Positions 2,484-37,794 are shown, counted from the first letter of the stretch. The stretch is DNA of 64,000 nt from an archaeon (GCA_018671245.1 JABHIB010000008.1:111756-175755), one strand, 5' to 3'. Notes: generated by a model not told the origin, from the sequence alone. Made by a program: numbers and translations.

Positions 2484-2546
2484 AACTTTTATTACTAATT
2501 AAACCTATAACTTCTTAAATTAAAATAGTTTTCGCTTCAATAGAAA

Positions 2547-2966
2547 ATGGATCAACCACAAAATCAACCACAACAACCTCAAAATCCATATAATGCACTT
2601 ATGGAATTAACCAATAGGTTAAGGATTTTAGAGGGACGTTATGGTTCAACAAGAGAAAGAATGTTTGTAATGAATCAAAATATGATAGACCATTATAAAC
2701 GAACAAATGTTGAACTAAAAACTTTGAATGAAGATATAAGAGATATGAAAGAAGACATATTTACTGTAAAAGAAACAGTCAGACATTTAGTACAAGAAAT
2801 GGGAAATTTTGTACGAAAAGAGCAATTGAAAGTTTTAGAAAAATATATTAATCTGTGGGACCCATTTAACTTTGTAACACTAGAAGAAGTTGAAGAACTT
2901 ATTGAAAAAAAGAGGATAAAGAATGTTGAACCAAAAAGAAAACGTAAAAAAAGTTCCAGTAAATGA
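2547..2966 (+). CDS. hypothetical coiled-coil protein (Q/P-rich N-terminus, lysine-rich C-terminus)
   Basis: ORF with N-terminal QPQNQPQQPQNPYN, heptad-like charged middle and C-terminal KRKRKKSSSK. Divergent from the ATPase gene. No recognisable catalytic motif. Confidence 0.35.
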   Translation: MDQPQNQPQQPQNPYNALMELTNRLRILEGRYGSTRERMFVMNQNMIDHYKRTNVELKTLNEDIRDMKEDIFTVKETVRHLVQEMGNFVRKEQLKVLEKYINLWDPFNFVTLEEVEELIEKKRIKNVEPKRKRKKSSSK

Positions 2967-3621
2967 AGTTGCAGAAATGAAAAAATCTGGATTAACAAAC
3001 GAACAGATAATAGGAAGACTAAAAGACAAAGCTTATACTCATGAACAGATTTCTGGAGCAATAGATCAAACAAATATTAAACAGGAAGCAATTTCTACAA
3101 ATCCAGGTATGGGAATACCTTCTCAAACACCTATGGCACCGCCTGAAACAAGAGGAGTCCCATTAGGATTAGCAAGCGCACCAAGTCCAACACCTTCAAC
3201 ACAAGAAGCACCCATTCAACTTCCTCAAGAAAATCTCATGCCTTCCACACAACAAACAATGGCACCTCAAGCTCAACCTATAGAACGAGCTAGTTACGAA
3301 ATGGTTGAAGAAATTGCAGAATCTGTTGTAAAAGAAAAGTGGGACGAACTACTACAAAATATTGGTGATATTCATAAATGGAAAGAAAAAACAAACACTG
3401 ATGTTCATTCTATAAAACAAGAGGTACTAAGAACTCAACAAAGATTCGATAATCTTCAGACTGCAGTTATGGGTAAAGTGAATGAATATGGAGAAGGTAT
3501 AAAAGATGTTGGAGCAGAAATGCAAGCAATAGAAAAAGTATTAGAAAAAATTATTGCACCTATGACAAGAAACATCAAGGAACTTTCAAAAATAACTGAA
3601 GAACTAAAAAAGAAAAAATAA
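2923..3621 (+). CDS. hypothetical coiled-coil protein
   Basis: 232-aa ORF overlapping the previous one by 44 nt in another frame. It has a P/Q/T-rich low-complexity centre and a coiled-coil C-terminus ending KKKK. Confidence 0.35.
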   Translation: MLNQKENVKKVPVNEVAEMKKSGLTNEQIIGRLKDKAYTHEQISGAIDQTNIKQEAISTNPGMGIPSQTPMAPPETRGVPLGLASAPSPTPSTQEAPIQLPQENLMPSTQQTMAPQAQPIERASYEMVEEIAESVVKEKWDELLQNIGDIHKWKEKTNTDVHSIKQEVLRTQQRFDNLQTAVMGKVNEYGEGIKDVGAEMQAIEKVLEKIIAPMTRNIKELSKITEELKKKK

Positions 3622-5357: not shown

Positions 5358-5636
5358 CTATACTTCTTCAAGCTGACTTTCTTCTTCATGAACTGGTACT
5401 GCAGCCTTACTAATTATGACTATATCTCCTATCGCCTTAACTAATTGATGAGGTATGATTACTCCTTTAGCTCCACCAAGTATTTTTGAAAGATATGACC
5501 TTTTAGTCGCTTTAACTCTCCATCCAAAAATTTTATTAGTTGTCAAAATAGATTCTTCAATATCTCCGAAATAGTCTCCCGAATCAGTATAAACTTCCAT
5601 ATCATAAATATCATTTATTTGTTTAGTTTTTAACAT
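5358..5636 (-). CDS. PRC-barrel domain protein
   Basis: 92 aa with the pattern GW/V..D..G..lG.v.D...D..tg.i..l.v (KILGGAKGVIIPHQLVKAIGDIVIIS), typical of stand-alone archaeal PRC barrels. Confidence 0.5.
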   Translation of the reverse strand: MLKTKQINDIYDMEVYTDSGDYFGDIEESILTTNKIFGWRVKATKRSYLSKILGGAKGVIIPHQLVKAIGDIVIISKAAVPVHEEESQLEEV

Positions 5637-18028: not shown

Positions 18029-19511
18029 AATTCATCACCTTTATTTCTCTTGTTTTCAAATTAACCAATTGTACTTTAGAAGGTTCTGGTTTATGACCTA
18101 CTTTTTCTTGAAAAGGAGTTTTAGATTGCCAACAGCTACCACAAATATTAGTAACCTTGCCATATTGATTAATAGCAGGTTTATGGACATGTCCAGCAAG
18201 AAAGAAATCTGGGACTTTAGTTATAGTTAAAAAATCATCATCTGGATCAGGAATAAATAAAGTTGAACCATGAGATGGTGCCAAATGCCTCTTTTGTAAA
18301 AGATATTTCATAACGAGGTCAGGTCGATCATATCCCCCATTATTTCTTATAATTCCAACATTGTTGATATAATAATCAAAACTATATCCATGATATAATA
18401 ATACATCAAAACCTTCAAAACCTTCTGATGCGTGAATATTGACAAAAGAAGGATTTGTAACAGATATAACATTAGGTAATTTTAATATAGTTTTTATGTA
18501 ATCTTTATCCAATATAGGTTGAGGTTCTGCAATCCTAACGGCATCGTGATTTCCAGGACAAATAATAATTTTAACATCTTTTCTTATCATACTTATTAAT
18601 TCTCCAAACTTGTCATATTGTTTGAATATGTCTTTTATATTTAATTCGTCATCTTGATTAGGATATATCCCTACACCATCCACAAGATCTCCGACAACAA
18701 ATAAGTATTTTACCTTTAAAGCAACATTTTTTTGTTCTGAATTACCTACGGTGCCATTAATCCATTTGATAAATTTTAAAAAATCATTTTCTAAAAACAT
18801 AGTAGACCCTACATGAACATCAGAGATTACCGCAAGATATATCTCTTCATCACATTTTTTCAAAACATCATTTTTTGGTACATCTGGAAAGTATAAATCA
18901 TCAGCAAAAACTACTTTATTGCCAGTAGAACCATTTATCCCTATTATTTCATCCAGACATAAATTGTTTGCATCTTCAAATAAAGGAATTTTATCTTTAG
19001 TAATTATTACTTTGATTGATCCTGTAAGGTCTTCAAGAGTTAGTATCATATTTTTATTTTTAGTTATATTTTTACTAGAAACATACCCTATCAAAGAAAC
19101 AGATTCTCTCTGCCTTTTATTTAAAATTTTATGAATAGAAATTGAATTTTCTAAACCTCTTTTAGATTGTAAGATTTTGCTGATTAAATTGAATCTTTTC
19201 TTATAATGTTGAGTAAAATCACTAACTTCTTTCTTTTTTGTAACTTCTGCATATTCTTTAGTGATAACAACAGGATAATCAGAATTATCAATATTTGGAA
19301 TAATAAGATCTTCTTCTTTTTCTAGATATAAAGATTTGTAAATTGAATTATTTAAGATTAATGAATTAGTCGAATATTTAGAAAAATCTTCAAAAAGATT
19401 ATTCAATTCTTCCATATTTTCACTATCTAAATTTTCCGATAAATCAGGATTCAATAAAATTCCTTTTTTCAGAAAAAAGTGAACAGTTTCTGATTTCATA
19501 AATTTAACCAA
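18018..19511 (-). CDS. dp1: DNA polymerase II (PolD) small subunit DP1 (calcineurin-like phosphoesterase)
   Basis: Phosphoesterase motifs ISDVHVGS, GDLVD and GNHD. 497 aa. Overlaps cdc6 by 16 nt. Confidence 0.9.
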   Translation of the reverse strand: MVKFMKSETVHFFLKKGILLNPDLSENLDSENMEELNNLFEDFSKYSTNSLILNNSIYKSLYLEKEEDLIIPNIDNSDYPVVITKEYAEVTKKKEVSDFTQHYKKRFNLISKILQSKRGLENSISIHKILNKRQRESVSLIGYVSSKNITKNKNMILTLEDLTGSIKVIITKDKIPLFEDANNLCLDEIIGINGSTGNKVVFADDLYFPDVPKNDVLKKCDEEIYLAVISDVHVGSTMFLENDFLKFIKWINGTVGNSEQKNVALKVKYLFVVGDLVDGVGIYPNQDDELNIKDIFKQYDKFGELISMIRKDVKIIICPGNHDAVRIAEPQPILDKDYIKTILKLPNVISVTNPSFVNIHASEGFEGFDVLLYHGYSFDYYINNVGIIRNNGGYDRPDLVMKYLLQKRHLAPSHGSTLFIPDPDDDFLTITKVPDFFLAGHVHKPAINQYGKVTNICGSCWQSKTPFQEKVGHKPEPSKVQLVNLKTREIKVMNFGE

Positions 19512-20686
19512 TTTTTTAATTTTTCAATTATATTTGAAATACTAGTAGAAGGGAGATTCATCACAATTTCTTTTTTCCTACCATATCTACCTTTACTAAT
19601 AACCTTTGTTCTTATAATTCCTAACATATCTAATTCTTCAATTAAATCTGATAATCTCCTATGAGTTAGAGGTTTTAATCCACATTTATTACAAATATCT
19701 TGATATTCTTCCGAAACATCACTGGTGTAAAATTTATCACTTTTTTTAAACAAATTAAAAATAGCTAGAAGAGTTATTTGTGATTGTTTTGGTAATGTCT
19801 TTATAGCATCAACAACTATTTCTTTATCTATTTTTTCTTCAGCATCATCAACATGTTTTAATAAAACTTTAGAGGCATCTTCCCTTTCTGCAAGTTCACC
19901 AGAGATTCTTAATAAATCTAAAGCCCTTCTAGCATCTCCATGTTCTCTAGCTGCTAGAGCAGCACATTTCTCAACAACACCATTACCCAGACACCCTTCT
20001 TTAAATGCAAATTTTGATCTTTGTTCTAAAATATCCTTTAATTGAATCGCATTATAGGGTGGAAAGTTCATTTCTTCTTCTGTTAATGAAGATTTAACTC
20101 TAGGATCAAGATCACTAGTAAACCTAAGATCGTTAGAGATACCAACAAAACAAACTTGAGCATTTTCTAATTCCTGATTGATTCTAGTTAGATTATATAA
20201 TAATTCGTCACCTTGTTTTTTCACTATTTGATCAATTTCGTCAAGAAGGAGTATAATTAACCTTTCTTTTGTATCTATCCTATTGAATAATTTTTTATAA
20301 ATCTCATTTCTAGGTAATCCTGTAAATGGAACATCTTCACCCAATTCTCTAGCTAAATGTGCTACCAAACGATATTCTGTATCTGCAACATTTTTTAATT
20401 TACAATTAACATAGAATATATCTAAAGGTACATTTTTAATTTCTGCAACTTTTTTAAGATCTTGGGCTACATTTAATGCAGATAAAGTTTTTCCAGTACC
20501 AGTTTTACCATATAAAAATATATTTGAAGGTTTTTCCAACCTAAGAGCAGGTGCTAATATTCGAGATAATTCTTGTATTTGTTCTTCTCTATGAGGTATA
20601 TTATTAGGAGTATGATTGATTTGTAATATATTCTTTTTGTCAAATAATCTTTCTTTATCAAGATACGATTCAAAATAATTTTTCAT
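19496..20686 (-). CDS. cdc6: Orc1/Cdc6 replication initiator
   Basis: AAA+ Walker A LYGKTGTGKT, Walker B LLLDEID and a C-terminal winged helix. First gene of the cdc6-dp1-dp2 operon. Confidence 0.9.
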   Translation of the reverse strand: MKNYFESYLDKERLFDKKNILQINHTPNNIPHREEQIQELSRILAPALRLEKPSNIFLYGKTGTGKTLSALNVAQDLKKVAEIKNVPLDIFYVNCKLKNVADTEYRLVAHLARELGEDVPFTGLPRNEIYKKLFNRIDTKERLIILLLDEIDQIVKKQGDELLYNLTRINQELENAQVCFVGISNDLRFTSDLDPRVKSSLTEEEMNFPPYNAIQLKDILEQRSKFAFKEGCLGNGVVEKCAALAAREHGDARRALDLLRISGELAEREDASKVLLKHVDDAEEKIDKEIVVDAIKTLPKQSQITLLAIFNLFKKSDKFYTSDVSEEYQDICNKCGLKPLTHRRLSDLIEELDMLGIIRTKVISKGRYGRKKEIVMNLPSTSISNIIEKLKNWLNL

Positions 20687-20771
20687 ATTATATTAACCTC
20701 ATTTTTTATTACACAATCAAACAAGTTATTTAAAGATTATTATAATAAAATATTCACACCAGGACCCTTAT

Positions 20772-20805
20772 TTCCAATGGAATGAATTTTAATTTTGATT
20801 TAGGG
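20772..20805 (+). promoter_or_regulatory. ORB-like element 1 (mini-ORB palindrome TTCCAATGGAA plus downstream G-string)
   Basis: Sequence tttccaatggaatgaattttaattttgatttaggg. Confidence 0.45.
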
Positions 20806-21103
20806 TTTTTCGATTATCAAAAATTAACAAATTTTGTAGAAACTTTAGAATGATAACAAAAAATAAAATAAACTATATTATATATATTATATAATAAAAA
20901 AACTTAAAAAATAAAAAATAAAAAATAAAATCGAATTCTTGATTATTGTTAACCTACAAATACCTCTACTATCAAAATTATAAAATATTATTATTTTATT
21001 AAAATTATAAAATTATAAAATAAAAATATACAAAATAAAGTAAATATAATTGAAAATATTATTAAAACTCAACACGATAGTATACAGATAACAAAAAATA
21101 AAT

Positions 21104-21130
21104 TTCCATAAGAAAAAGGGGTCAGAGGGT
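21104..21130 (+). promoter_or_regulatory. ORB-like element 2 (TTCCA...GAAA...GGGGT...GGGT)
   Basis: Sequence ttccataagaaaaaggggtcagagggt. It is G-rich within an otherwise AT-only tract. Confidence 0.45.
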
Positions 21131-21191
21131 ATAACAAAATAAATAAAATTCAATAAATAATTTTATATACTAGTATAATCAAATTAATCAT

Positions 21192-21500
21192 ATGAATCTA
21201 ACATTATTATTAATATCTTTACTAGCTACAATATTTGTTTTTGAATTTACAAAACATTTCATAACAAAAACTATGTTTAAAGTAGTTTTAATAACAGTAT
21301 TAGTATCGATAGTATTTTTTATTATGATAGAAGGATTATCTGATGATGATGAATTCAAAAATAGTAATGCTATTCTTAAAACAGGATCAGTAATAGTTGA
21401 TACTGTAAAAGATCAAGAAGTAATGGAAGATTTTTCAATAAAAGAGTTCTGGCCTATAAAGAAAATAAAAAATTTTTTCATTAATGAAGAAGAATGGTAA
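21192..21500 (+). CDS. small membrane protein; stop codon TAA lies inside the 9-bp direct repeat flanking the transposon
   Basis: 102 aa with 2 TM helices and an acidic C-terminus. The stop is at 21498-21500. Confidence 0.3.
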   Translation: MNLTLLLISLLATIFVFEFTKHFITKTMFKVVLITVLVSIVFFIMIEGLSDDDEFKNSNAILKTGSVIVDTVKDQEVMEDFSIKEFWPIKKIKNFFINEEEW

Positions 21501-21505
21501 TGTAG
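21497..21505. repeat. 9-bp direct repeat GTAATGTAG (left copy; putative target-site duplication)
   Basis: Identical 9-mer at 29229-29237. Each copy abuts the outer end of a terminal inverted repeat. Confidence 0.6.
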
Positions 21506-21530
21506 TTCATTGGTGCATTAAAGGTTGGTA
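21506..21530. repeat. left terminal inverted repeat TTCATTGGTGCATTAAAGGTTGGTA
   Basis: The reverse complement of 29204-29228 is TTCATTGGTGCATAAACGGTTGGTA, identical at 23 of 25 positions. Confidence 0.6.
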
Positions 21531-21582
21531 GAATAAATTGAGTTAATATAATCTATTCTTTGCTTATTTTTTATTGAAGAAA

Positions 21583-21792
21583 CTATGTCTTTCTTCCTTT
21601 AACTATTTTAATCTTATTCTTCAAACTAAGAATCTCTTTTTCTTTTCTAATTTTAACTCTAACCTTTTCTTTATCTTTCATAAGTTTTGCTTTTTCTTTC
21701 TCTAAATAATTCTCTGCCCTCTCAAGTTTTACTAAATCTTTCTCTAACTTTTTCAATTTGGGACTAGATAATTCCCTTTTTTCTGTTTTCAT
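21583..21792 (-). CDS. small lysine-rich coiled-coil protein (transposon cargo)
   Basis: 69 aa, all K/E/L heptads. Last gene of the cargo operon. Confidence 0.3.
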   Translation of the reverse strand: MKTEKRELSSPKLKKLEKDLVKLERAENYLEKEKAKLMKDKEKVRVKIRKEKEILSLKNKIKIVKGRKT

Positions 21793-21833
21793 CCTCTTTT
21801 TATATTTTTACAATGAATTCCTTACTTATATAC

Positions 21834-23216
21834 TTAACTCTCCAACTTTTCTAAAATATTCTCATCAACAATCACAATATGTCCAATGCTTTTAACATTC
21901 TTGTATTTAACAATAATTCCCTTAGTTTTAAGATTTTGTTTTTTATCTAATCTAATTCTTAAACTATCAATCTTATTTTCTCCCAAGAGAACTTCATCAA
22001 CCTTTCCAATATAATTCCCTTCCCCACAATAAACTTCCCTTTTAATCAAACCTTTGATGCTATTCTTAGGATGTTTATTTATTCTATTAATTTCAATTTT
22101 TTCTATAATCTTTTTTTTATAAACAAAAGCCATTAATCCAAACAATCCGATTATTAGAAGAAATCCGAGAACATTCCAATTGTTATTAACTATACTTGAG
22201 CCACCAACAACAAAACCAGTCATAGTATTTCTTCCGATAAACAAAATTCCTACTAACATAAATCCAACAAGAATTATTAAGAAAGTTTTACCCTTAATTC
22301 TTTTCAAATTTTTCTTAATCTTGCTTTTGTATTCCTTATGTGTCTTTGGCTTTCCTACTTTTTTCTTTATTATTTTAAATTTAGATTTAAATAATCTAAT
22401 GATTAGCAAAATCAATAATACTGCAACTACACCTATAATTCCATAAACCAAATACATCCAATTAAAATTTTTTACAGGGAGTAAAGCACATTCTTCTTGA
22501 GATAAAACTTCAAAGGTTTCTCCTGCAACAGCAGTTTTATTCCCACTATAAGCAATTTCAGCATATAACCTGTATGTTCCTTGAGAAGCTGAATCTGGAA
22601 CTTTTAGTTCTATGTTGAAGCTTGTTTCTTTTTCAACAGCTCTTGTGTCCTTGTATTCAGTAATTAATTTATTATTTTTATCAATAATCCAATAAGTCAT
22701 AAAAGCATCAAGAAGTTCTACTTTAGCATAATTTTCCAATTTTACATTTGCTTTAATCTTTTTTCCAGAACAAATCTCTTTATATCCATCTTCTAAATTT
22801 AAATAAATATCAAATAAAGGTTCTGATGGGCCAAGATATTCACAAATTTGTGTTTGATTTGGCATTCCTTTTGTTCCAGTGCAATCTCCTTTATTTGCAC
22901 AAATTCTTTCTTGTATCCCTGATTCTGGGCAGATAGATGGAAACCACTCTGTACATTGCCAGTCATAAGTACACTTGCTTCCTCCAGAACTTCCTCCTCC
23001 AGGATTTGGAGTTGTGGGACAAGCTCCGCAATCTCCTGGGCAAGTTGAACAGCTTTCTCCATTATTGCAAATTCCATCTCCGCAATATAAAGACGGTGTT
23101 GAAATTTCAGAGTAATTTCCAGAACCATAAATCCCTTCTCCATAGTTACCTGCAGAAACTAATGGAATTAGAACTAATATTAATGCAAAAAAAATAAGTT
23201 TTTTTTTGATTATCAT
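21834..23216 (-). CDS. signal-peptide, Cys-rich extracellular domain, TM, C-terminal PRC-barrel-like protein
   Basis: Signal peptide MIIKKKLIFFALILVLIPLVSA and Cys cluster CGDGICNNGESCSTCPGDCGACP. TM helices near residues 255-275 and 300-360. The C-terminal 70 aa (YCGEGNYIGKVDEVLLGENKIDSLRIRL...IVIVDENIL) resemble a PRC barrel. Confidence 0.45.
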   Translation of the reverse strand: MIIKKKLIFFALILVLIPLVSAGNYGEGIYGSGNYSEISTPSLYCGDGICNNGESCSTCPGDCGACPTTPNPGGGSSGGSKCTYDWQCTEWFPSICPESGIQERICANKGDCTGTKGMPNQTQICEYLGPSEPLFDIYLNLEDGYKEICSGKKIKANVKLENYAKVELLDAFMTYWIIDKNNKLITEYKDTRAVEKETSFNIELKVPDSASQGTYRLYAEIAYSGNKTAVAGETFEVLSQEECALLPVKNFNWMYLVYGIIGVVAVLLILLIIRLFKSKFKIIKKKVGKPKTHKEYKSKIKKNLKRIKGKTFLIILVGFMLVGILFIGRNTMTGFVVGGSSIVNNNWNVLGFLLIIGLFGLMAFVYKKKIIEKIEINRINKHPKNSIKGLIKREVYCGEGNYIGKVDEVLLGENKIDSLRIRLDKKQNLKTKGIIVKYKNVKSIGHIVIVDENILEKLES

Positions 23217-25642
23217 CTTATACTCCCTCCTGGATTAATTACAAATTTACATCCATCTTCTTTATAAATTTCCCAATGAGAACTAGTAAAACTCATATTC
23301 GCATTCCAAGTTAGAGTTCCAGAACCAGTAATTGTAATATTATTTGGGACTATAAAATTAGTATCCCAAACACAATTATCAGAACATGTAATTGCCCAGT
23401 TTCCAGAATCTGGGGCTGTGCAAGTATTGAGAGCTATTGTGATTTTTCTTGTCTTAGTAATATTTAAATTTCCCCCGGTATCAATTGCATAAGCAGTATA
23501 ATTATAATTTCCAAGATTTAAATCTGTGAAATTGTTATGTAAATTATATAATCCATTATCATAAGAGGCGTTGATCTCTTCTGGACTTAATGCTCTTGAA
23601 TATATTTTGACTTCATCAATATCTCCCTTAAATAAATAACCTGCACTATTTCCTGATGCTCCTATTCTTGTAACTGCAGCACCCTTGGTTGCGGTTAATG
23701 CCTTAAAATTAGCAGAAGTTAAAGGATAATCCATTATTTCTACACCATTTACATAAACTGTTGCGGTTGTTCCATCCCAAGAGTTAACAACATGATACCA
23801 TGTATCTAATTCTGCAACAATACTTGTACCTCCAGATTGATAAGTCGGTCCACTAGCACCTGCACCTATTGTTGCAGTTATGTGGTGTGAAGTTGCTTCT
23901 AACCCAATAAAAAAAACAGAACTACCAACACTGGTTCCATCATTTCTATGAAGTGGGGTTCGCCATCCACTAGGTAAGTCTGCTGTTCGTCTTATCCAAG
24001 CTTCAACAGTCATAGCATCATAATTTCCATCAGCAGTACTTCCAAGATTAATATAATCGTCTACCCCATCGAATTCCAAAGAATATCCATATTTTCCAGT
24101 TACTAAACTTTCTTCTCCAAAATCCGCCCCAGTAAAAATTCCAAAATTATCATAACTTGAATTATCATAAACACCTGATGCATTTGTATTTTCAAAATTC
24201 CAATATCCTAACAAAGAATAATTCCAATCAAAAAATGCTGAAGTATCTAATCCGTCTGTTATTGTTGTATTTAAATAAACAAAATTTTCACTTTTTGTAT
24301 CTCCATCTGTAGGTGTGGGAGGTTCCCAAATTACTACTGGAGGATCTTGATCCACAATTGTTAAATCACTTGAATTTCCCCATTCACTATATGCTCCATC
24401 ATATAATCTCATACCACATTTCCAGACATCCCCTGAACTAGTATTTCCAGAATCTAAAACTGCATTAAATTCATAATTATTAGGATAACTTTCATTATAA
24501 TCAACAGTTAAATTCAAAACACCATCTTTATACCATCTTACTGTAACATTCATAGCATCTTCATCAATATCTAAGAGTGTATCATAACAATTTAAATCTT
24601 GATTATTTAAATTACTTCCATCAGTTGAATTAATTTCAGGAGTTGGTGTCTCTGGAGGGCCACTTACAGCAACAGTAACATTTCTTGAATCTATATTTAA
24701 ATTACCTTCTTCATCCAGAACATAAGCAGAATAATTATAAATTCCATTTTCAAGAGAAGAAAAATTATGATAAAGTCTATTTGCAGTATTATTATATAAT
24801 GCACCAATTTCTTCTGCACTTAATGCACGTTCCACAATCAATACTTCATCTACCTTACCTTTATATTGATAATTAGCACCATTACTGGATGCACCAATTC
24901 TTGTGGGAGTTGTTAAAGTATTATATGTTGCTAAAGCATATTCTTTGTTATATTCACCATTTAGATAAACTACAACATCAGTCCCATTCCAAACAGCAGC
25001 TATGTGCCACCATTCCCCATAAGTTGCAAGTTGTGTAGTTCTTCCTGCATACCAACCACCAGGGGCACCTGAATTAGCTCCAATAGTAGCAGTTAATAAA
25101 TTATCATTACTAACACCTAACCAATATGAACTTGAACCAATCGTTGTCGAAGTTGCATGATGTAAAGCACATTCATAAGAAGGGCCATCAGCAGTTTTGT
25201 AAAGCCAAGAAGCAATCGTAAGTTCGGTAGGATTACTAACAACAACATTATCTGTTTTAATATAGTCATTCACTCCATCAAATTCTAAAGCATTTCCATA
25301 TTTTCCGGTGGTTATATTTGAAGTAGTTGGTCCTCTTCCACCAAAAGTCATGAAGTTATCATAACTTGAATTATCAAAAACTCCTGTTGAATTTGTATTT
25401 TCAAAATTCCAATATCCTAACAAAGAATAATCCCAGTCAAAAAAAGCAGAAGTTTCATTATCATCGGTTATAGTTGTATTAAGATAAACCCAAGCATTTT
25501 CAGTTATATCTCCATCTGGAGGGGTTGGGGGTTCCCAAGTTATAGTTGGAGTATCAGCACTAACTAAAGCCAGAGAAAAACTAAATAATAAAAATATAAA
25601 AAAGGTTAAAATTATCTTTTTTTTTAATAATCTTTGTTTCAT
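23213..25642 (-). CDS. secreted protein with two tandem LamG/ConA-like lectin-type domains (internal duplication)
   Basis: Signal peptide. Two about 400-aa repeats each begin (T/V)(I/V)TWEPPTPxDGD...YLNTTITD...SAFFDW(D/N)YSLLGYWNFENTN. They contain LEFDGV(N/D)DYI...WYHxxxxWNGT...VYxNGE blocks characteristic of the LamG/pentraxin fold. Many N-x-S/T sequons. Confidence 0.6.
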   Translation of the reverse strand: MKQRLLKKKIILTFFIFLLFSFSLALVSADTPTITWEPPTPPDGDITENAWVYLNTTITDDNETSAFFDWDYSLLGYWNFENTNSTGVFDNSSYDNFMTFGGRGPTTSNITTGKYGNALEFDGVNDYIKTDNVVVSNPTELTIASWLYKTADGPSYECALHHATSTTIGSSSYWLGVSNDNLLTATIGANSGAPGGWYAGRTTQLATYGEWWHIAAVWNGTDVVVYLNGEYNKEYALATYNTLTTPTRIGASSNGANYQYKGKVDEVLIVERALSAEEIGALYNNTANRLYHNFSSLENGIYNYSAYVLDEEGNLNIDSRNVTVAVSGPPETPTPEINSTDGSNLNNQDLNCYDTLLDIDEDAMNVTVRWYKDGVLNLTVDYNESYPNNYEFNAVLDSGNTSSGDVWKCGMRLYDGAYSEWGNSSDLTIVDQDPPVVIWEPPTPTDGDTKSENFVYLNTTITDGLDTSAFFDWNYSLLGYWNFENTNASGVYDNSSYDNFGIFTGADFGEESLVTGKYGYSLEFDGVDDYINLGSTADGNYDAMTVEAWIRRTADLPSGWRTPLHRNDGTSVGSSVFFIGLEATSHHITATIGAGASGPTYQSGGTSIVAELDTWYHVVNSWDGTTATVYVNGVEIMDYPLTSANFKALTATKGAAVTRIGASGNSAGYLFKGDIDEVKIYSRALSPEEINASYDNGLYNLHNNFTDLNLGNYNYTAYAIDTGGNLNITKTRKITIALNTCTAPDSGNWAITCSDNCVWDTNFIVPNNITITGSGTLTWNANMSFTSSHWEIYKEDGCKFVINPGGSIR

Positions 25643-25643
25643 T

Positions 25644-27554
25644 TTAACTCTGGATTATTATTCCACTCCCATTATGATACATTTTAGCTGAGCAGTCTGC
25701 GGTGAAACAAAAAGTATCTGTTGTTGTAATATTTCCAGTTGCATTAATATCCCCCGCAACATCTAAATTTCCAGTCATAGCATCTCCACTAACATTAACA
25801 AATGCATTATCAGCATCACTTGCGGTTATGGCATTTTCCACACACCCAGTTATTTCAGAACACTCATCTTGTCCTGCAAGAGCACTATCGATTTCTGATT
25901 CTGTATAAAATAAACTTGTTAACCAACTCACCAAAATACTCAAAGTTCCATCATTATTCTCCATTTGAGTTTCATTAATAGTATTCAGGTTATCCCAATA
26001 ATCTGATGAATTAACATTTAAATCAGATTCCTCACCATCATCTATCCAATCATCTTGATTAATATCCATATAAAGTGTATCAGCTAATGATTGATTCCAA
26101 CTTGAGTTATCTCCTGTAACACTTATGCTTGCATACAAAGTGTCAGCATAAGTTTTGTTCCAATCATCTCCATAATTCACCGGAGCATAATTGTCATCAA
26201 GCAAAGTTGTCAAATCTGATTCTTCATCATAAAATATTGTTCTTGCATAACTTTCATTCCAGGATGAATTATCTCCTGCAACTCCAGAAATCTGATTATC
26301 AACATAATCTTTCATTGAATCATTAAAGATAACATCTTGTGTATCTGCATAAGCATTAGCTGGAATTGTTTGGTTGTAAGCCCAAGTGTCATAAGTTGCA
26401 TTGTATGTTGAAAGCCAGCTAGCTTCTTGTGAAGTTATATAATCAAACACAGGTGTAGATTGATTGTAATCCCATTCAATTCCTGCATAAAGTGTATCAG
26501 CTAATGATTGATTCCAACTTGAGTTATCTCCTGTAACACTTATGCTTGCATACAAAGTGTCAGCATAAGTTTTGTTCCAATCATCTCCATAATTCACCGG
26601 AGCATATAAAGTGTCTGTCAAAGATTGATTAAAAGAGGAGTTTCCTCCAGAAATTCCATCAATCCTTGTGCTCAAAGAAGAATTAACTGAATTAATTAAA
26701 TCTGTTTCATTATAATTATCTGCTATATTATCAATTGTATTATTTAACTTAGTTTCATTAAAGTAAATGGTGGTGGTATCATTATATAAATAATTTCCAT
26801 CTGCTGTTTTTTGTGTGTCTATTCCTCCCCCCCAACGAGAATCCCCTGTGTTGTTAAATATCTCATCCCATATTGTTGGAATTTCTGGTTTGTTTGTCAA
26901 GTCATTATAATCTTTATCCCATGCAGAATAAATAGGATCAGATTCACTTGTTAAATAACTCTGCAAATCACTTATCTGCGATTCTTCAATTGTAACATTG
27001 CTCCAGTCATCTGAATAAACTTTTGAAGCATAAATATTAGTAACATACAAATTCGCCCATTTTAACAATGAACTTCCTAAATTAAATAAATTATTAATCT
27101 CTGGAAGAAAAGAGCCATTTAAATATTGATTAGTTACAGTCGCATTAAGATAGCTTCCGATTAAAGATAAATTACCATTGATTATTACATTTCCATCAAT
27201 TGTTCCCCCTTCATCTTTGTCAAGATAATTAGCATCATTTGTGAACTTGCTGATTGTAACTTCTGTTAGATCTATCTTGCTTGAATTAATAGAATCATCA
27301 GCTAAATCTTCGGCACTAAGAGTTCCATCTAAAATATGGGAAGTATTTATGGAGGAAGAATAAATATTTGTCCCGTTCACCATTGTTTCATTTAATTTAA
27401 CTCCATCACTACCTGCAATTTTTGATAAAAAATCATTAAGGACCGTTCCCCAATCATTTTCATCTCCTCCTATAGTTGGAAGACGAGATGCGGATACCAA
27501 ACTCATCATCAATAAAATAAATATTCCAATTAAAAATAATTTACTTGCCCTCAT
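25644..27554 (-). CDS. secreted sequon-rich surface (S-layer-like) protein with internal near-identical repeat
   Basis: Signal peptide MRASKLFLIGIFILLMMSLVSA and more than 30 N-x-S/T sequons. The peptide block LTDTLYAPVNYGDDWNKTYADTLYASISVTGDNSSWNQSLADTLY occurs twice, encoded by about 120-bp identical DNA copies at 26068-26188 and 26486-26606. Confidence 0.5.
   Translation of the reverse strand: MRASKLFLIGIFILLMMSLVSASRLPTIGGDENDWGTVLNDFLSKIAGSDGVKLNETMVNGTNIYSSSINTSHILDGTLSAEDLADDSINSSKIDLTEVTISKFTNDANYLDKDEGGTIDGNVIINGNLSLIGSYLNATVTNQYLNGSFLPEINNLFNLGSSLLKWANLYVTNIYASKVYSDDWSNVTIEESQISDLQSYLTSESDPIYSAWDKDYNDLTNKPEIPTIWDEIFNNTGDSRWGGGIDTQKTADGNYLYNDTTTIYFNETKLNNTIDNIADNYNETDLINSVNSSLSTRIDGISGGNSSFNQSLTDTLYAPVNYGDDWNKTYADTLYASISVTGDNSSWNQSLADTLYAGIEWDYNQSTPVFDYITSQEASWLSTYNATYDTWAYNQTIPANAYADTQDVIFNDSMKDYVDNQISGVAGDNSSWNESYARTIFYDEESDLTTLLDDNYAPVNYGDDWNKTYADTLYASISVTGDNSSWNQSLADTLYMDINQDDWIDDGEESDLNVNSSDYWDNLNTINETQMENNDGTLSILVSWLTSLFYTESEIDSALAGQDECSEITGCVENAITASDADNAFVNVSGDAMTGNLDVAGDINATGNITTTDTFCFTADCSAKMYHNGSGIIIQS
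26068..26606. repeat. two about 120-bp identical direct repeats (period about 418 bp) inside the surface-protein gene
   Basis: cataaagtgtatcagctaatgattgattccaacttgagttatctcctgtaacacttatgcttgcatacaaagtgtcagcataagttttgttccaatcatctccataattcaccggagcata is present at both positions. Confidence 0.7.
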
Positions 27555-27723
27555 TTTTACTTCCCTCTTTTTTTACTGCAAGCCAATTCATCACAATAGC
27601 ACGAACAATCTCCGCATCACTCTCACCAAAGATATCTTGATATTCTCTCATAATTTCCATTTGTTTTTTAGTGAATGTTACCTGAACTTTTACAACTTCT
27701 TTCTTCTCTATCTTAGTTCCCAT
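27541..27723 (-). CDS. small ribbon-helix-helix-like protein, first gene overlapping the cargo operon
   Basis: 60 aa. A beta-strand segment VKVQVTFTKKQ is followed by two helices (MEIMREYQDIF, AEIVRAIVMNWL), the CopG/Arc-type arrangement. Its stop overlaps the start of 25644-27554 by 14 nt. Confidence 0.35.
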   Translation of the reverse strand: MGTKIEKKEVVKVQVTFTKKQMEIMREYQDIFGESDAEIVRAIVMNWLAVKKEGSKNEGK

Positions 27724-27897
27724 ACATAGAGGAATGTTTTAAGAGTATTTAAAGATTTCTATTATAATCTAATTAGAATGTTATTAGAATATATTAAGAT
27801 GTCTCAGAAATTTGACTGGCTCCGAAATCTGCTCCGCTTGATTTCTCCGCTAAAAAATCTATTAATGTAAAAAGAATTCTTAAGTTGGAGGTCAATT

Positions 27898-28038
27898 ATT
27901 ACTTCTTCTTGGGTTTATTCCAGTATGGGCTTTTACACTTAGGGCAAATAATTGGCTTTTCCTTTTTATTTCTTGGTGCCCATTCATGTCCACATCTCTC
28001 ACATTTGTAACCCTTAATCTTAATTGTTATTTCTGCCA
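27898..28038 (-). CDS. unannotated 46-aa zinc-ribbon protein with lysine tail
   Basis: Reverse complement reads MAEITIKIKGYKCERCGHEWAPRNKKEKPIICPKCKSPYWNKPKKK. The CxxC...CPxC pattern is the same as in the C-terminus of 38142-38543. Below the ORF-track length cutoff. Confidence 0.35.
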
Positions 28039-28213
28039 TAATTAGAATTAGGATAATGTATATATAAATCTTACCTTTTAGGGTATTACCTATATAGTAA
28101 TAACTTTATAGCCGAAACATTTAAATAGTTTACTTACCTTAATAAGTTATACCTAATTAGGTAAATATAAAGAGGGCTCCGAAGAGCCCTAGATTCCATC
28201 CAACGCAAATCAA

Positions 28214-29140
28214 ATGAAATCTAACAATGTAAAAAAGAGCAAGTATAAAAAACTTTCTTGTCCTAATTGCAAATCAAAAAATATAATCAAATGGACAAAA
28301 AGAAAAACAGAAAATAGAGGATTAATTCAGAGATATAAATGCAATGATTGTGATAAAACATTTACAATAAATGATGGTTTCTTTAGAATGAGAAATCATC
28401 CCAAAAAAATAACTTGTGCTTTAGATTTATTTTATAGAGGAGTTTCAACAAGAAAAGTTCAAGAACATTTTAAGGCATTTTATCCTCATAATGCAGATCA
28501 TACTTCTGTTTTAAGATGGCTTAGAAAATATTCAATAATGATTTCAAAATTCACAGATAATCTTTATCTTAATATCGGACAAGAAATTCAAATTGATGAG
28601 ATGGAATATCACAGAAGGAAATTCTATAATAAAAAGGGTGTAGATAAAAATTGGTTCATTGATTGTATTGATAGTAGAACAAGATTTATGATTTCTTCTG
28701 AATATGTTAAAGCAAGAGAACAAAAAGAACTAAAATTTGTTTTATCAAAAGCAAAACAAAAAACAGGGGAGCAAGTTAAGATTGTAACTTCTGATGGACT
28801 TCTTGCTTATCCAAATGCTATTAAGAAAGTTTATGGATTTTCAAATAAAACTCATAAACTTAATGTTTATCATAATCAGGTTAATGCTTCAAAAGGTGAA
28901 GGGTTTAACATCATGATTGAAAGATTGCACAATTCAATAAGAGAAAGAACTAAAACTTTTAGAGGTTTTCATGGTTCTGTTGAAAGTGCAAATGCAATAA
29001 TGAAGGGTTATGAAATATTCTATAACTTCATAAGAAAACATCAGTCAATCAAAAGATGTCCTTATGAACTTGCTATCCCAAAATTGAAACTTAATTCTGA
29101 AAATAAATGGATGGAGTTGATTAAAATGGCAAACGAATAA
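28214..29140 (+). CDS. IS6-family transposase (DDE) with N-terminal zinc-ribbon extension
   Basis: N-terminal CPNCKS...CNDCDK zinc ribbon. HTH block GVSTRKVQEHF...DHTSVLRWLRKY aligns with IS26 TnpA (GISYRELQEML...DHSTIYRWVQRY). DDE blocks IQIDEMEY...W.IDSRTR, VTSDGLLAYPNAI and IERLHNSIRERTK match IS26 HMDETYV, TDKAPAY and IECDHGKLKR. Confidence 0.85.
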   Translation: MKSNNVKKSKYKKLSCPNCKSKNIIKWTKRKTENRGLIQRYKCNDCDKTFTINDGFFRMRNHPKKITCALDLFYRGVSTRKVQEHFKAFYPHNADHTSVLRWLRKYSIMISKFTDNLYLNIGQEIQIDEMEYHRRKFYNKKGVDKNWFIDCIDSRTRFMISSEYVKAREQKELKFVLSKAKQKTGEQVKIVTSDGLLAYPNAIKKVYGFSNKTHKLNVYHNQVNASKGEGFNIMIERLHNSIRERTKTFRGFHGSVESANAIMKGYEIFYNFIRKHQSIKRCPYELAIPKLKLNSENKWMELIKMANE

Positions 29141-29203
29141 TAAAATAAAAAACCCACAATGGAAACTTCGGTTAAAATTTCAAAGATGGAATTATATTGA
29201 AAT

Positions 29204-29228
29204 TACCAACCGTTTATGCACCAATGAA
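29204..29228. repeat. right terminal inverted repeat TACCAACCGTTTATGCACCAATGAA
   Basis: Reverse-complementary to 21506-21530 (23/25). Followed by the 9-bp direct repeat at 29229-29237. Confidence 0.6.
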
Positions 29229-29237
29229 GTAATGTAG
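29229..29237. repeat. 9-bp direct repeat GTAATGTAG (right copy)
   Basis: Exact copy of 21497-21505. Confidence 0.6.
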
Positions 29238-29274
29238 AAAGTTTTATATAATCTATCTCATTTATTAATTTAAA

Positions 29275-29553
29275 TTGGAGGAATCCACAATGGCTAATGA
29301 AGATAAAAAATATTCAAAACAAATTTTAGGTAAGGTAATTGTCAGTAAAGCTGGAAAGAGGTTTGGAGAAGTAGGAAATATAGTTTTTGAAACTAGAACT
29401 GGAGAATTAATCCAATTAGTATTGAAAAACCCTACAGGATTTACTGAAGGAATGGATTTAGATCGAGATAAAGATAATAATCTTTTAGTACCTTACAGTG
29501 CAGTAATAGCAATAGGTGATTTTGTTGTTGTTGCAGAAGAGGACATAATATAA
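29275..29553 (+). CDS. PRC-barrel domain protein
   Basis: 92 aa (ILGKVIVSKAGKRFGEVGNIVFETRTGELIQLVLKN...VVVAEEDI), same fold pattern as 5358-5636. Confidence 0.5.
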   Translation: MEESTMANEDKKYSKQILGKVIVSKAGKRFGEVGNIVFETRTGELIQLVLKNPTGFTEGMDLDRDKDNNLLVPYSAVIAIGDFVVVAEEDII

Positions 29554-29588
29554 ATATAATTTCTTATTTTTTCTTTTTCTAATTAAAT

Positions 29589-31439
29589 ATGGCTATAAAT
29601 TATAAAACTACCAAGGATATAAAAGTTCCAAAAAAGCTCATCAATCAAGTAATTGGGCAAGAAAATGCTATAAAAATAATAAAAAGAGTAGCAAAACAAA
29701 GAAGGCATCTTCTATTAATAGGTGAACCTGGAACTGGAAAAAGTATGATAGGTCAAGCTTTAGCAAATTTATTACCTAATGAAAATTTACAAGATGTTAT
29801 AACTATACATAATTCTGAAGAAGAAAATTTACCTCTTATCAAATCTTTTCCTAAGGGTATGGGGAAAGATTTCGTTTTCAAATCAAGATTGAATTCAAAA
29901 GGAAAATTCAAAGGACAGACCATTTTTCTTTTTTTTATGATTATTTTTGCCAGCCTAATGCCTTGGTGGATAAGAAGGCAATATGGTGATATAATTGCAG
30001 CAGCATCTCTAATAAGTAGTATGATGTTCATAATGATTTTAATTTTACTAGTTAATTTAGGTAAAAGGACAAAGATTAGGGAAAATCCCTTACCAAAATT
30101 AATAATGGGATATCATTCTTCAAAAAAAGCACCGTTCATAGATGCAACTGGTGCACATTCTGGTGCACTATTGGGTGATGTATTGCATGACCCCTTTCAA
30201 AGCGGCGGACTTGGAACTCCTCCTCATGAAAGAGTAATTCCAGGTATGATTCATAGGGCAAATAAAGGTGTATTATTCATAGATGAAGTATCGACACTTA
30301 AACCAGAAACTCAACAAGAATTATTAACTTCATTACAAGAAAAAAAATACTCCATTACTGGACAATCTGAAAAATCTGCAGGTGCAATGGTAAGGACAGA
30401 ACCTGTTCCTTGTGATTTTATATTAGTTGCTGCAGGAAATACTGAAACTGTGAAAAATATGCACCCTGCACTAAGATCTAGGATAAGAGGTTATGGATAT
30501 GAAATCTATATGAATAATAATATGGAAGATAATGAAGAAAATAGGGACAAACTTGTTTATTTTGTAGCACAAGAAGTAATTAATGATAAGAAAATACCTC
30601 ATTTTACAAAAGAGTCAGTCGAGATGATAATAAATGAAGCTAGAAAAAAATCGGGAAAGGCAAATCGATTAACCTTACACTTAAGGGAATTGGGTGGACT
30701 AATAAGGGCTGCAGGAGATGTAGCAAAAGAAAAGAACTCAGAATATGTTGAACCTATCCATATCGATCTGGCAAAAGAATACTCTAGAACTTTAGAGCAA
30801 CAGATGGCAGATAAATATATCAAAACTAAAAAAGAATATGATGTCATAATAACTGAAGGTACAAAAATTGGAAGAGTCAATGGTATGGCAGTTATAGGAT
30901 CAAATAATGCATTTTCTGGTATTATTTTACCTATAGAGTCTGAAGTAACTCCTGGTGGAAAAAAAACAGAATTTATAGCAACAGGAAATTTAGGAGATAT
31001 AGCAAAAGAGGCAATAAAAAATGTATCTGCAACTATTATGAAATATTTTGGAGAAGATATAAAAGAAAAACACGACATATATGTGCAATTTCTTCAGACC
31101 CATGAAGGTGTAGAGGGAGATTCTGCATCTATAGCTGTAGCAACAGCAATTATTTCAGCACTTAAAAAAATACCAATAAAACAAAACACTGCAATGACTG
31201 GATCTCTTTCTGTAAGGGGTGATGTTTTGGCAGTAGGTGGAGTAAATTCTAAAGTGGAGGCTGCAATTGATGCAGGTATAAAAAACATAATAGTACCTAA
31301 AGCAAATGAGAAAGATATATTAATACCAAAAAACAAAATGAAAGGTATAACTATAATTCCTGTTAAAGATATAAATGATGTATTAAAAGAGGCTTTAGAT
31401 TGGAAAGGAAAAACAAACATATTGAAGAAGTTAAAATAA
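29589..31439 (+). CDS. lonB: archaeal membrane-bound Lon protease (LonB)
   Basis: AAA+ Walker [10 protein letters not shown] two-helix TM insertion ([16 protein letters not shown]...[12 protein letters not shown]) interrupts the ATPase domain. C-terminal Lon protease domain with catalytic Ser block [16 protein letters not shown] and a Lys-containing partner region. Confidence 0.85.
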
Positions 31440-37179: not shown

Positions 37180-37794
37180 ATGATACAAAAAAAACTAAAA
37201 CCAAAAAAAACTTACAACATCTACTATCTTTCCATGGATGAATTAAATAAATTAATTGAGTCAACAAAATCCTTGAGAGATCAAATAGTTCTAAAGATTC
37301 TGGCAAGAACAGGTATGAGGAGATTCGAATTATGCAACTTAAGGGTCATGGATGTAGATTTTACTAAGAGGAGAATATTCATTCCAAAGGCGAAAGGTGG
37401 CAAATTTAGAACAGTTCCTGTAGATCGAGACACATTACAATCAATTAAATTTTACATAGGTTCAAGGCAGAATGGTAAGCTTATACAGAGTAACAAAAAA
37501 GATAATGATGGGATAGACGAAAGTAGGATCAATGCAATAGTAAAAAATACTGCGATAAGGGCCGAAATTCCCCATCCTGACCCTACAAAAAGGAATATGA
37601 ACCCTCATATACTAAGACACAGTTTTATACGTCATATGCTAAAGATTGGAGTTCCACCAAATTATGTACAACAGTTAGCAGGCCATTCAGACATCAGAAC
37701 AACATTACAAATGTATGGTATTCCTAGTTTTACAGATGTTCAAGAAAAGTACGATGAGATCTCAAACACATTTTATGGTGATAAAAATATTTAA
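37180..37794 (+). CDS. tyrosine recombinase / integrase, catalytic domain only (204 aa)
   Basis: Catalytic blocks are ARTGMRRFELCNL (Arg I), HILRHSFIRHML (H-x-x-R) and GHSDIRTTLQMYG (nucleophile Tyr). There is no N-terminal core-binding domain. A 25-codon out-of-frame ORF (MAEIGHNHNVYKELLRFLGILERK, starting at 37095) lies just upstream. Confidence 0.75.
   Translation: MIQKKLKPKKTYNIYYLSMDELNKLIESTKSLRDQIVLKILARTGMRRFELCNLRVMDVDFTKRRIFIPKAKGGKFRTVPVDRDTLQSIKFYIGSRQNGKLIQSNKKDNDGIDESRINAIVKNTAIRAEIPHPDPTKRNMNPHILRHSFIRHMLKIGVPPNYVQQLAGHSDIRTTLQMYGIPSFTDVQEKYDEISNTFYGDKNI

Follow-up and report, generated by a model that had tools for sequence, protein, structure and literature searches.

The question raised by a stretch of archaeal DNA (GCA_018671245.1 JABHIB010000008.1:111756-175755) is how much of it can be moved by the transposase encoded at 28214-29140. 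This stretch, called the window below, comprises 64,000 nt, and all coordinates are counted from its first letter. A preliminary description had proposed that the mobile unit is not a short insertion sequence (IS) around the transposase gene but the whole of a 7.7-kb segment that includes an operon for surface proteins. The analysis presented here leads to the conclusion that 21506-29228 (7,723 bp) is very probably one autonomous DDE transposon built like a transporter IS (tIS): it consists of 25-nt terminal inverted repeats (TIRs), a core at its right end and, between this core and the left repeat, a passenger operon. The family of which it is a member inserts next to promoters.

The boundaries can be read directly. 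The left TIR (IRL, TTCATTGGTGCATTAAAGGTTGGTA, 21506-21530, plus strand), where homology to a second copy on another contig (L002) begins, and the right TIR (IRR, TACCAACCGTTTATGCACCAATGAA, 29204-29228, minus strand), where homology to L002 and to a third contig (L003) stops, are reverse complements at 23 of 25 positions. Outside them lie two copies of the 9-mer GTAATGTAG (21497-21505 and 29229-29237), a perfect target-site duplication (TSD). The 25-mer, with up to three mismatches allowed, is found in these two places only in the 64-kb window, and not once in 100 shuffles; the 9-mer is likewise confined to its two places. Direct reading thus bears out the repeats and the duplication as they had first been described, and the possibility that they are generic motifs recurring elsewhere is not supported within the window. 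The left flanking host gene (21192-21500, plus strand) encodes a 102-aa protein with two N-terminal hydrophobic segments, and its TAA stop codon (21498-21500) is inside the left 9-mer, so the open reading frame (ORF) is left intact, again as had been noted. On the right, the duplication is followed on the plus strand by the target promoter (29238-29249), which the insertion leaves intact and which consists of an A-rich sequence, AAAGT (29238-29242), resembling the transcription factor B recognition element (BRE) and a TATA box, TTTATAT (29243-29249), which begins 6 nt past the duplication. This promoter drives a PRC-barrel host gene (from TTG 29275 or ATG 29290 to 29553, plus strand) and then LonB. 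The base composition of the element shows no clear anomaly with respect to its flanks.

Whether the whole segment moves as a unit can be judged from the site without it. In an index of 5.8 billion proteins, the 102-aa flanking protein has a sole homologue, 90% identical, which is encoded on L072 and L073, both of them short contigs that stem from other samples. On both contigs, the PRC-barrel gene comes immediately after the 102-aa gene, LonB is next, and the element is absent. Positions 1-948 of L072 align to window 20558-21505 (88.9% identity) and positions 940-3022 to window 29229-31311 (91.2%); the two alignments overlap by exactly 9 nt, a single copy of GTAATGTAG, which joins 21505 to 29238. 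The junction on L072 and L073 reads ...GATGATTG-GTAATGTAG-AAAGTTTTATATAAT..., the flanks are 88-91% identical to those of the window, and the target promoter is unchanged. This is the empty site with one copy of the 9-mer that the preliminary description had said should be sought in relatives. When the JGI metagenomes were scanned for an exact match to the reconstructed empty site, AAGAATGGTAATGTAGAAAGTTTTAT, there was none; the real empty site carries single-nucleotide polymorphisms just left of the target.

A second insertion site was found on L002, which encodes an identical transposase protein and on which the same TIRs surround the same seven genes, with HhH-GPD and a 101-aa gene on one side and RFC subunits on the other. 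The L002 element has its own perfect 9-mer, AACTAACAG, and blastn similarity between L002 and the window begins at 21504 and ends at 29228, that is, at the TIR boundaries. A third right-hand context, adjoining RpS19e, is present on L003, whose left end is missing; the insertion flanks of neither L002 nor L003 have a match in the 64-kb window. No relative was found to carry the region devoid of its TIRs or TSD, since L072 and L073 are empty and L002 has a duplication of its own. The 7.7-kb segment therefore inserted as a unit into the spacer between the 102-aa gene and the PRC-barrel/LonB operon, which upholds the proposal that the mobile unit is the whole 7.7 kb. Moreover, the window and L002 copies (96.9% identity over 3.9 kb of the core and adjacent cargo) are closer to one another than are the window flanks to those of the empty-site relative (89-91%), which indicates that the element moved after those lineages split.

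The element is not alone. Relatives of its transposase were sought in one genome per GTDB species, which gave 57 loci with 53-96% identity. Nearly all of these come from metagenome-assembled genomes (MAGs) that bear the name Woesearchaeota, Pacearchaeota, Nanoarchaeota or Nanoarchaeia; for a few the label says no more than "archaeon", and there was one weak match (E 6e-4) in a Cardiobacteriales MAG. Elements were bounded by a fuzzy TIR search and by an unbiased search around the transposase gene, in which the only conditions were a perfect direct repeat of 9 bp and inverted repeats that match at 17 or more of 25 positions. The unbiased search bounded 24 elements in the GTDB loci, to which two with duplications matching at 8 of 9 positions were added; these 26, the window element and that of L002 make up the set of 28 elements used below. 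A scan of the JGI metagenomes with the TIR pattern matched at least 119 stretches and gave at least 6 further bounded elements. In total, at least 32 elements have perfect 9-bp duplications, and every 9-mer is different. The elements are 1.7-7.7 kb long, and every intact one found carries cargo (1-6 genes); an intact cargo-free element was not seen among the bounded members. Hence the copies with other cargo that the preliminary description had anticipated do exist, and the comparison establishes that the window element is a member of a widespread DPANN family with shared ends, a shared core, a 9-bp duplication and differing passengers. Derivatives were also found. In a non-autonomous one (L176/L188), positions 250-2041 of L176 (1,792 bp) are bounded by TIRs and a perfect TSD, ATTTTTACG, and contain only a 483-aa ATPase gene and a 63-aa transposase remnant. 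On L130, a 973-bp TIR-bounded segment (1703-2675) has two small ORFs and no transposase, and its flanks are unmatched. Several MAGs contain two different family members (L036 and L067, on the same contig JAJRTJ010000003.1; L020 and L038; L037 and L039), so elements of the family are able to coexist in one genome.

Where do these elements insert? In the targets reconstructed for the 28 elements, one flank nearly always reads NNNNN-TTTWWAW, the motif starting 6 nt beyond the duplication; the consensus is often aaaNN-TTTATAA-AC(C/T) and extends past the TATA box (…TTTATAAACC/ACT). At the 6-nt offset, TTTWWAW is present in 22 of the 28 sites as compared with 0.9% of all positions in the same loci (P = 6e-40), and YTTWWWW in 24 as compared with 2.9% (P = 3e-33); against the non-coding positions of these loci alone, TWTWWAW is present in 24 of 28 sites and at 3.6% of positions (P = 4e-31). 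The effect was replicated in independent data from the JGI scan: among the matches listed, 86 unique one-sided junctions were obtained, of which 26 have the motif at the same offset, whereas none of the 24 other offsets scanned (0-24) has more than 4 and the background is 0.9% (P = 1e-32). Sixteen sites have the motif on the flank next to IRR and 8 have it only on the flank next to IRL, which means that the orientation of insertion is not fixed. Upstream of 49 long ORFs of the window, the same motif peaks 27-32 nt before the ATG and is itself preceded by A-rich sequence, and at many insertion sites an ATG is found 35-36 nt beyond the duplication. By this geometry, which is that expected of BRE and TATA box in archaeal genes with no leader or a short one, the target motif is the host promoter. 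The insertion sites show, then, that exactly 5 nt separate the end of the duplicated 9 bp from an archaeal TATA box downstream of it, whichever way round the element lies. An insertion at this position spares the gene upstream as well as the promoter downstream.

The steps by which such a register might be produced can be outlined. The transposase would bind the 25-nt ends, of which the family TIR logo gives the invariant positions, and would capture a target just where the BRE begins on its upstream side; the ends would be joined 9 nt apart and repair would then duplicate the 9 bp, since a duplication of this length implies target cuts staggered by 9 nt and subsequent gap repair. The choice of position would fall to the transposase, possibly aided by a 46-aa zinc-ribbon protein encoded beside it. 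The fate of the donor could be either that of a cut-and-paste element or that of a replicative one (a cointegrate followed by recombination, as in IS26); replicative transposition through cointegrates is the rule in the IS6 family, and what is visible here are simple insertions, the end products of the reaction. As for target capture, it could be based either on direct readout of the BRE/TATA sequence or on recognition of promoter DNA bound and bent by TBP and TFB. Direct recognition of AAANN-TTTAWAA-AC by the transposase, with no part played by TBP/TFB or the zinc-ribbon protein, is a serious possibility, to which we would give somewhat less than an even chance. It is favoured by the flank consensus, which runs beyond the TATA box, and by the TIR itself, since the inner part of the TIR read outward (CAACC-TTTAAT-G or AACCG-TTTATG-C) resembles the BRE/TATA-like target motif, and some IS, such as IS30, prefer targets that resemble their own ends. 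However, the TIRs of the family do not all keep their TATA-like part, the resemblance being lost in some variants (…GCTTATG, …CTCTAA), and the flank consensus is the host's general promoter consensus, so that the two models are inseparable in silico. The inner part of the TIR could also be an outward promoter or a TBP site. A transpososome that docks on promoter DNA bent by TBP/TFB, via its zinc finger or via the 46-aa protein as a candidate adaptor, and that integrates at the upstream edge of the BRE, is a possibility that we put forward only tentatively.

Another explanation for the register would be that the elements do not choose the TATA-proximal position but that, in compact genomes, purifying selection leaves only insertions there. 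Spacers between genes are indeed short, and in both the window and L002 the duplication overlaps the upstream stop codon, so that few harmless positions would have been available. Yet a 9-bp duplication leaves about 10 harmless registers even where the spacer has zero length; 17 of the 28 sites fall within non-coding spacers, of which 15 measure 97-929 bp and many offered other neutral positions, and the register is nevertheless the same; and the offsets form a single sharp spike (26 against no more than 4 elsewhere), with an intergenic-only background of 3.6%. Selection alone is therefore insufficient, the register is taken as target choice, and we consider the selective explanation improbable.

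Far less probable still is a 1.4-kb IS that happens to lie beside host surface genes, with the distant left repeat as a solo relic and the 7.7 kb as a product of chance or a composite. It draws on the usual size of IS6-type elements (0.7-0.9 kb, or 1.2-1.5 kb in the zinc-finger clades), on the fact that these mobilise genes in pseudo-compound transposons, and on the size of the core, which alone is 1.4 kb. It conflicts with the perfect 9-bp duplication around the outer repeats, with the empty site that joins 21505 to 29238 precisely, with the recurrence of the whole unit in L002 at a new TSD and with the absence of a second transposase copy in the window. Nor is there a remnant of an inner repeat: between the ends of the element, the best match to the TIR is 16 of 25 positions, the level of shuffled sequence (15-18), from which it follows that the transposase gene has no proximal left repeat of its own, as the preliminary description had found. 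Finally, an integrated virus, plasmid or island brought in by a site-specific recombinase, with the repeats as att-like sites, can be dismissed almost with certainty, for although the LamG protein of the cargo matches a PHROG "virion structural protein" through its LamG domain and a gene for a tyrosine recombinase of the Phage_integrase family (37180-37794) is located some 8 kb beyond IRR, the element's ORFs include no integrase, capsid, terminase or replication gene, PHROGs yields only transposase models and LamG-domain matches and no viral hallmark, the direct repeat differs at every site (GTAATGTAG, AACTAACAG and at least 30 others) and is thus a target duplication and not an att site, and the element encodes a DDE transposase whose catalytic triad is invariant.

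To return to the autonomous, promoter-proximal transposon, several observations weigh against this interpretation or narrow it. Neither a transposition intermediate nor an excision product nor a second copy was found in the window, and all the contigs that were read with flank proteins identical to those of the window (24 and 23, from look-ups of the 102-aa and PRC-barrel proteins) carry the element, so the insertion looks fixed in the window's own population. A bare, cargo-free IS in many copies may be lost in assembly, and many of the relatives lie at contig ends. Four of the 28 sites lack the motif, and the proximity to promoters is a correlation among surviving insertions, of which selection against disruptive ones could be part of the cause. 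The gene for the zinc-ribbon protein was undetected in 10 of the 28 elements, so it may not be essential. Lastly, the assignment of the transposase to IS6 is weak (65 bits in NCBIfam against a cutoff of 125, and an NCBI label of IS1/IS6).

What all members share, apart from the ends, is a core. DNA similarity between the window and elements with other cargo (L013, L017, L019 and L046) starts at 27806-27821 and runs to IRR, whereas on the left only the TIR is shared. The core of about 1.42 kb thus delimited has two divergent genes, one for the zinc-ribbon protein and one for the transposase. Its left edge, set by the limit of DNA homology, is a non-coding tail downstream of the zinc-ribbon gene (27806-27898), and within this tail there are three CTCCG motifs spaced by 12-15 nt (27811-27850); CTCCG occurs again in the leader hairpin mentioned below. 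The zinc-ribbon protein (27899-28039, minus strand; 46 aa, KCxRCxHEW...CPKCKSPYWNKP) was detected with its own hidden Markov model in 18 of the 28 elements, in every case with its gene close to the start of the transposase gene and pointing away from it. In some members (L024, L048 and L067), its gene abuts IRL and the cargo is downstream of the transposase gene. The two genes are separated by a divergent promoter region (28040-28213), which contains a TTTATATA box on the minus strand (28068-28061), 29 nt before the zinc-ribbon ATG, and a GAAACA-TTTAAAT motif (28114-28126) ahead of the transposase gene, the TTTAAATAG part of which is invariant in 9 relatives. The transposase leader carries a GC-rich stem-loop (28173-28190; GGGCUC-CGAA-GAGCCC and one more G-C base pair; z = -3.4), and in single-sequence folds the leaders of relatives have hairpins at the same place with other stems (GGGC/GCCC, GGUGGUG/CACCACC, GGGUG/CACCC). 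This stem-loop may be a regulatory structure. RNAalifold found no consensus structure in a MAFFT alignment of the leader, because the stems are out of register in that alignment, and a search of Rfam gave no family and one sub-threshold snoRNA match.

The genes of the window element are arranged as 69, 460, 809, 636, 60 and 46 aa on the minus strand, followed by the 308-aa transposase on the plus strand. The contiguous minus-strand operon that the preliminary description had reported as cargo is therefore correct in gene order, except that the 46-aa zinc-ribbon gene belongs to the conserved core. The first of the five genes of the passenger operon (27541-27723, minus strand), outside the shared core, encodes a 60-aa protein that NCBI names a CopG family (ribbon-helix-helix) regulator, and it is present only in elements with this type of surface-operon cargo. 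It is followed by the gene for a 636-aa secreted protein with 34 sequons for N-glycosylation (25644-27554, minus strand), in which a perfect 120-nt direct repeat (26070-26189 and 26487-26606) is spaced by 417 bp, that is, 139 codons. In the population, variants of this protein of 497, 606, 614, 621, 630, 632 and 636 aa are found, the 497-aa form being exactly 139 aa shorter than that of the window, and this suggests that its length varies through the repeat. The next gene (23213-25642, minus strand) encodes a secreted protein of 809 aa, in which there are 26 sequons for N-glycosylation and two LamG (Laminin_G_3) domains. It is in the N-terminal region of this protein that the copies differ most: over the corresponding part of the gene (24863-25360), the window and L002 have no detectable DNA similarity, in contrast to the rest of the element, which is 90-97% identical, and this part is a mosaic or hypervariable segment. 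Then come the genes for a 460-aa protein (21834-23216, minus strand), which has a signal peptide, a Cys-rich ectodomain (15 Cys), a C-terminal PRC barrel, 3 N-glycosylation sequons and three hydrophobic segments beyond the one resembling a signal peptide, and for a lysine-rich protein (30% K) of 69 aa (21583-21792, minus strand) with no family match. The PRC barrel of the 460-aa protein is 36% identical over 70 aa to the product of the small PRC-barrel gene at 5358-5636, and no other paralogue of the cargo was found elsewhere in the window.

Since the 636-, 809- and 460-aa products each begin with a hydrophobic segment like that of a signal peptide, a sound reading of the cargo is that it forms a cell-surface, probably glycosylated module. 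That this module has a role in surface variation or host contact is plausible. The idea that the element is a vehicle for surface-antigen variation thus agrees with a cargo that is secreted, rich in sequons and variable between copies, and only its role in that variation stays at the level of plausibility. The surface operon is also present in L002 and L015, and in L003 (which, lacking its left end, is outside the set of 28). Other members carry other genes. As judged by Pfam, about half of the 28 elements have restriction-modification systems or DNA methyltransferases; the systems are of Type II, with endonucleases like MjaI and R.Pab1 and methylases of the N4/N6, C5, Dam and Eco57I-like kinds. 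One element carries a complete ABC transporter of the Liv type in six genes (five for the transporter and one for a TrmB regulator). Further cargo recognised by Pfam includes a trypsin-like protease, a PMT/Alg9-like glycosyltransferase, a gene resembling those for class-I aminoacyl-tRNA synthetases together with chorismate mutase, Fic/DOC, a PD-(D/E)XK nuclease and AAA ATPases. The suggestion that this is an unusual and probably undescribed vehicle must accordingly be modified: no earlier description was found in the literature that was searched, but the element is no one-off, and the usual cargo of its widespread family is restriction-modification.

Around the element, a 505-bp AT-rich spacer (20687-21191, GC about 0.23) lies beside orc1/cdc6 (with 19496-20686), upstream of which are the genes for the PolD subunits; it has inverted-repeat arms of 36 nt (20674-20709 and 21028-21063). 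This spacer is probably a replication origin, in which case the transposon is about 300 bp away from it. The tyrosine-recombinase gene at 37180-37794 lies among small unannotated ORFs and may belong to another integrated element. Two small stand-alone PRC-barrel genes of the host are present in the window (5358-5636 and 29275-29553).

The interest of this family is connected with its hosts. DPANN archaea have tiny genomes, depend on other cells and lack genetic tools, and gene exchange among them is poorly understood. The family provides the complete anatomy of transposons that move whole operons between lineages, and what they move includes restriction-modification systems, a nutrient transporter and a glycosylated surface module likely to matter for host contact. 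The promoter-proximal register explains how 7.7 kb can be inserted harmlessly into a compact genome, and its fixed distance from the TATA box points to a mechanism of target selection that has not been described for archaeal or bacterial IS in the searchable literature. A transposon vector for DPANN and other archaea might be developed from the compact core, which comprises no more than a pair of small genes and the 25-nt ends.

How, then, is the transposase to be classified? The 308-aa protein (28214-29140, plus strand) combines an N-terminal CxxC...CxxC zinc ribbon, a helix-turn-helix (HTH) region and a DDE domain, as found by Pfam, NCBIfam and alignment. In an alignment of 22 family members (70% mean column identity), C16, C19, C43 and C46 of the zinc ribbon are invariant, as are D128, D194, E236 and R243, which gives a catalytic spacing of D-65-D-41-E with a basic residue, R243, at +7. 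All 22 members match Pfam DDE_Tnp_IS240 (PF13610), with 32.7 bits for the window protein as compared with a cutoff of 27. The best IS model of NCBIfam is IS6 (NF033587), which reaches 65.4 bits and covers model positions 3-202 of 202 but stays below its cutoff of 125; the IS1, IS256 and IS481 models reach 34-37 bits (36.8 for IS1, with a cutoff of 100). The N-terminal zinc domain passes the IS1/IS1595 model NF050000 (33.2 bits, cutoff 28), and PF03811 (InsA-like) matches 2 of the 22 members. NCBI labels the protein "IS1/IS6 family transposase", and the other genes of the element are given in GenBank as hypothetical proteins. The closest annotated relatives in plasmid records are clostridial zinc-finger transposases of the "IS6 family" (27% identity over residues 16-299). 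A library of 1.84 billion cluster representatives contains 104 clusters that match at E <= 1e-30, very few of which are more than 50% identical, and a sequence search of the PDB gave no solved transposase relative. On these matches, the transposase is IS6-like, distantly so. The earlier statement that it is clearly of the IS6 family stands as regards the IS240 catalytic domain, the HTH and the zinc ribbon, and does not stand as regards the score, which is below the NCBIfam IS6 cutoff, and the rules for duplication and ends, which are broken.

These rules define IS6 elements as having an 8-bp duplication, 14-bp ends starting with GG, a length of 0.7-0.9 kb and one ORF, with passengers carried between two directly repeated IS copies in a pseudo-compound transposon. 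The zinc-finger members of clade h (Varani et al. 2021), which correspond to clades VII-VIII (Harmer & Hall 2019), are longer, the seven longest measuring 1230-1460 bp; archaeal and long clades often deviate from the end rules, and whether they belong to IS6 is an open question. The family resembles the long zinc-finger clade, as represented by WP_013721013.1 of the Clostridium botulinum plasmid p3BKT015925, in its layout of zinc finger, HTH and DDE, in the basic residue at E+7 and in the length of its core (1.4 kb as compared with 1230-1460 bp). It differs from IS6 in several ways: firstly, its duplication is 9 bp instead of 8 bp, as is evident in the window from the empty site and in at least 31 other elements; secondly, its ends are 25 nt long and read T[TAG]C[AT]TTG (TTCATTG, TACATTG, TGCATTG) instead of being 14 nt long with a GG start; thirdly, it has an additional zinc-ribbon gene, hence a two-gene core, and archaeal (DPANN) hosts; and fourthly, its passengers are inside one pair of TIRs, there being no second IS copy in the window. 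The surroundings of the clostridial IS6 relative show no evident inverted repeats like the ends of the family. By joining IS6-like catalysis to an IS1-like zinc domain and a 9-bp duplication, the family bears on whether the archaeal and long IS6 elements should be placed in IS6 at all.

The IS1 family also makes a 9-bp target duplication. The likeness of the present family to IS1 consists of this duplication and of the InsA-like N-terminal zinc ribbon; unlike IS1, it has a transposase encoded by a single uninterrupted ORF with no frameshift, and its catalytic domain fits IS6 better (65 bits). As regards IS1595, there is no match to the NCBIfam IS1595 transposase model, and only the N-terminal zinc domain passes the IS1/IS1595 model. 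In overall build, the family has the form of the tIS, which one source restricts to IS1595 and IS66 and of which another source gives a single example within IS6, ISDsp3, with one passenger. It shares with the tIS one transposase, TIRs, a TSD and passengers inside the ends, and its members have ends and transposase in common but not their passengers; it differs from them in that the intact elements found all carry cargo, 1-6 genes, including complete restriction-modification systems and a six-gene ABC operon. In a literature search that covered sources other than ISfinder and most subscription journals, no account was found of this family, nor of transposons with cargo in DPANN archaea or of archaeal IS that choose targets near a TATA box. 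IS with passenger genes are thus already known; this family and its targeting rule appear to be new.

For the targeting rule itself, the nearest parallels are found in eukaryotes. TFIIIB or Pol III directs the integration of Ty3 and Ty1 to sites beside Pol III genes, and Tf1 integrates at Pol II promoters. The analogy is functional: here, as there, insertion occurs at a fixed short distance upstream of an element for transcription initiation (5 nt from the TATA box in the present case), and coding sequence is avoided. The enzymes and the classes of element are unrelated, and in the archaeal case a contact with TBP/TFB is hypothetical. If the transpososome were indeed to dock on TBP/TFB, the family would constitute the first prokaryotic counterpart of the tethered integration of Ty3-like elements and a natural "safe-harbour" vehicle by which genes for defence, transport and the cell surface spread among DPANN archaea.

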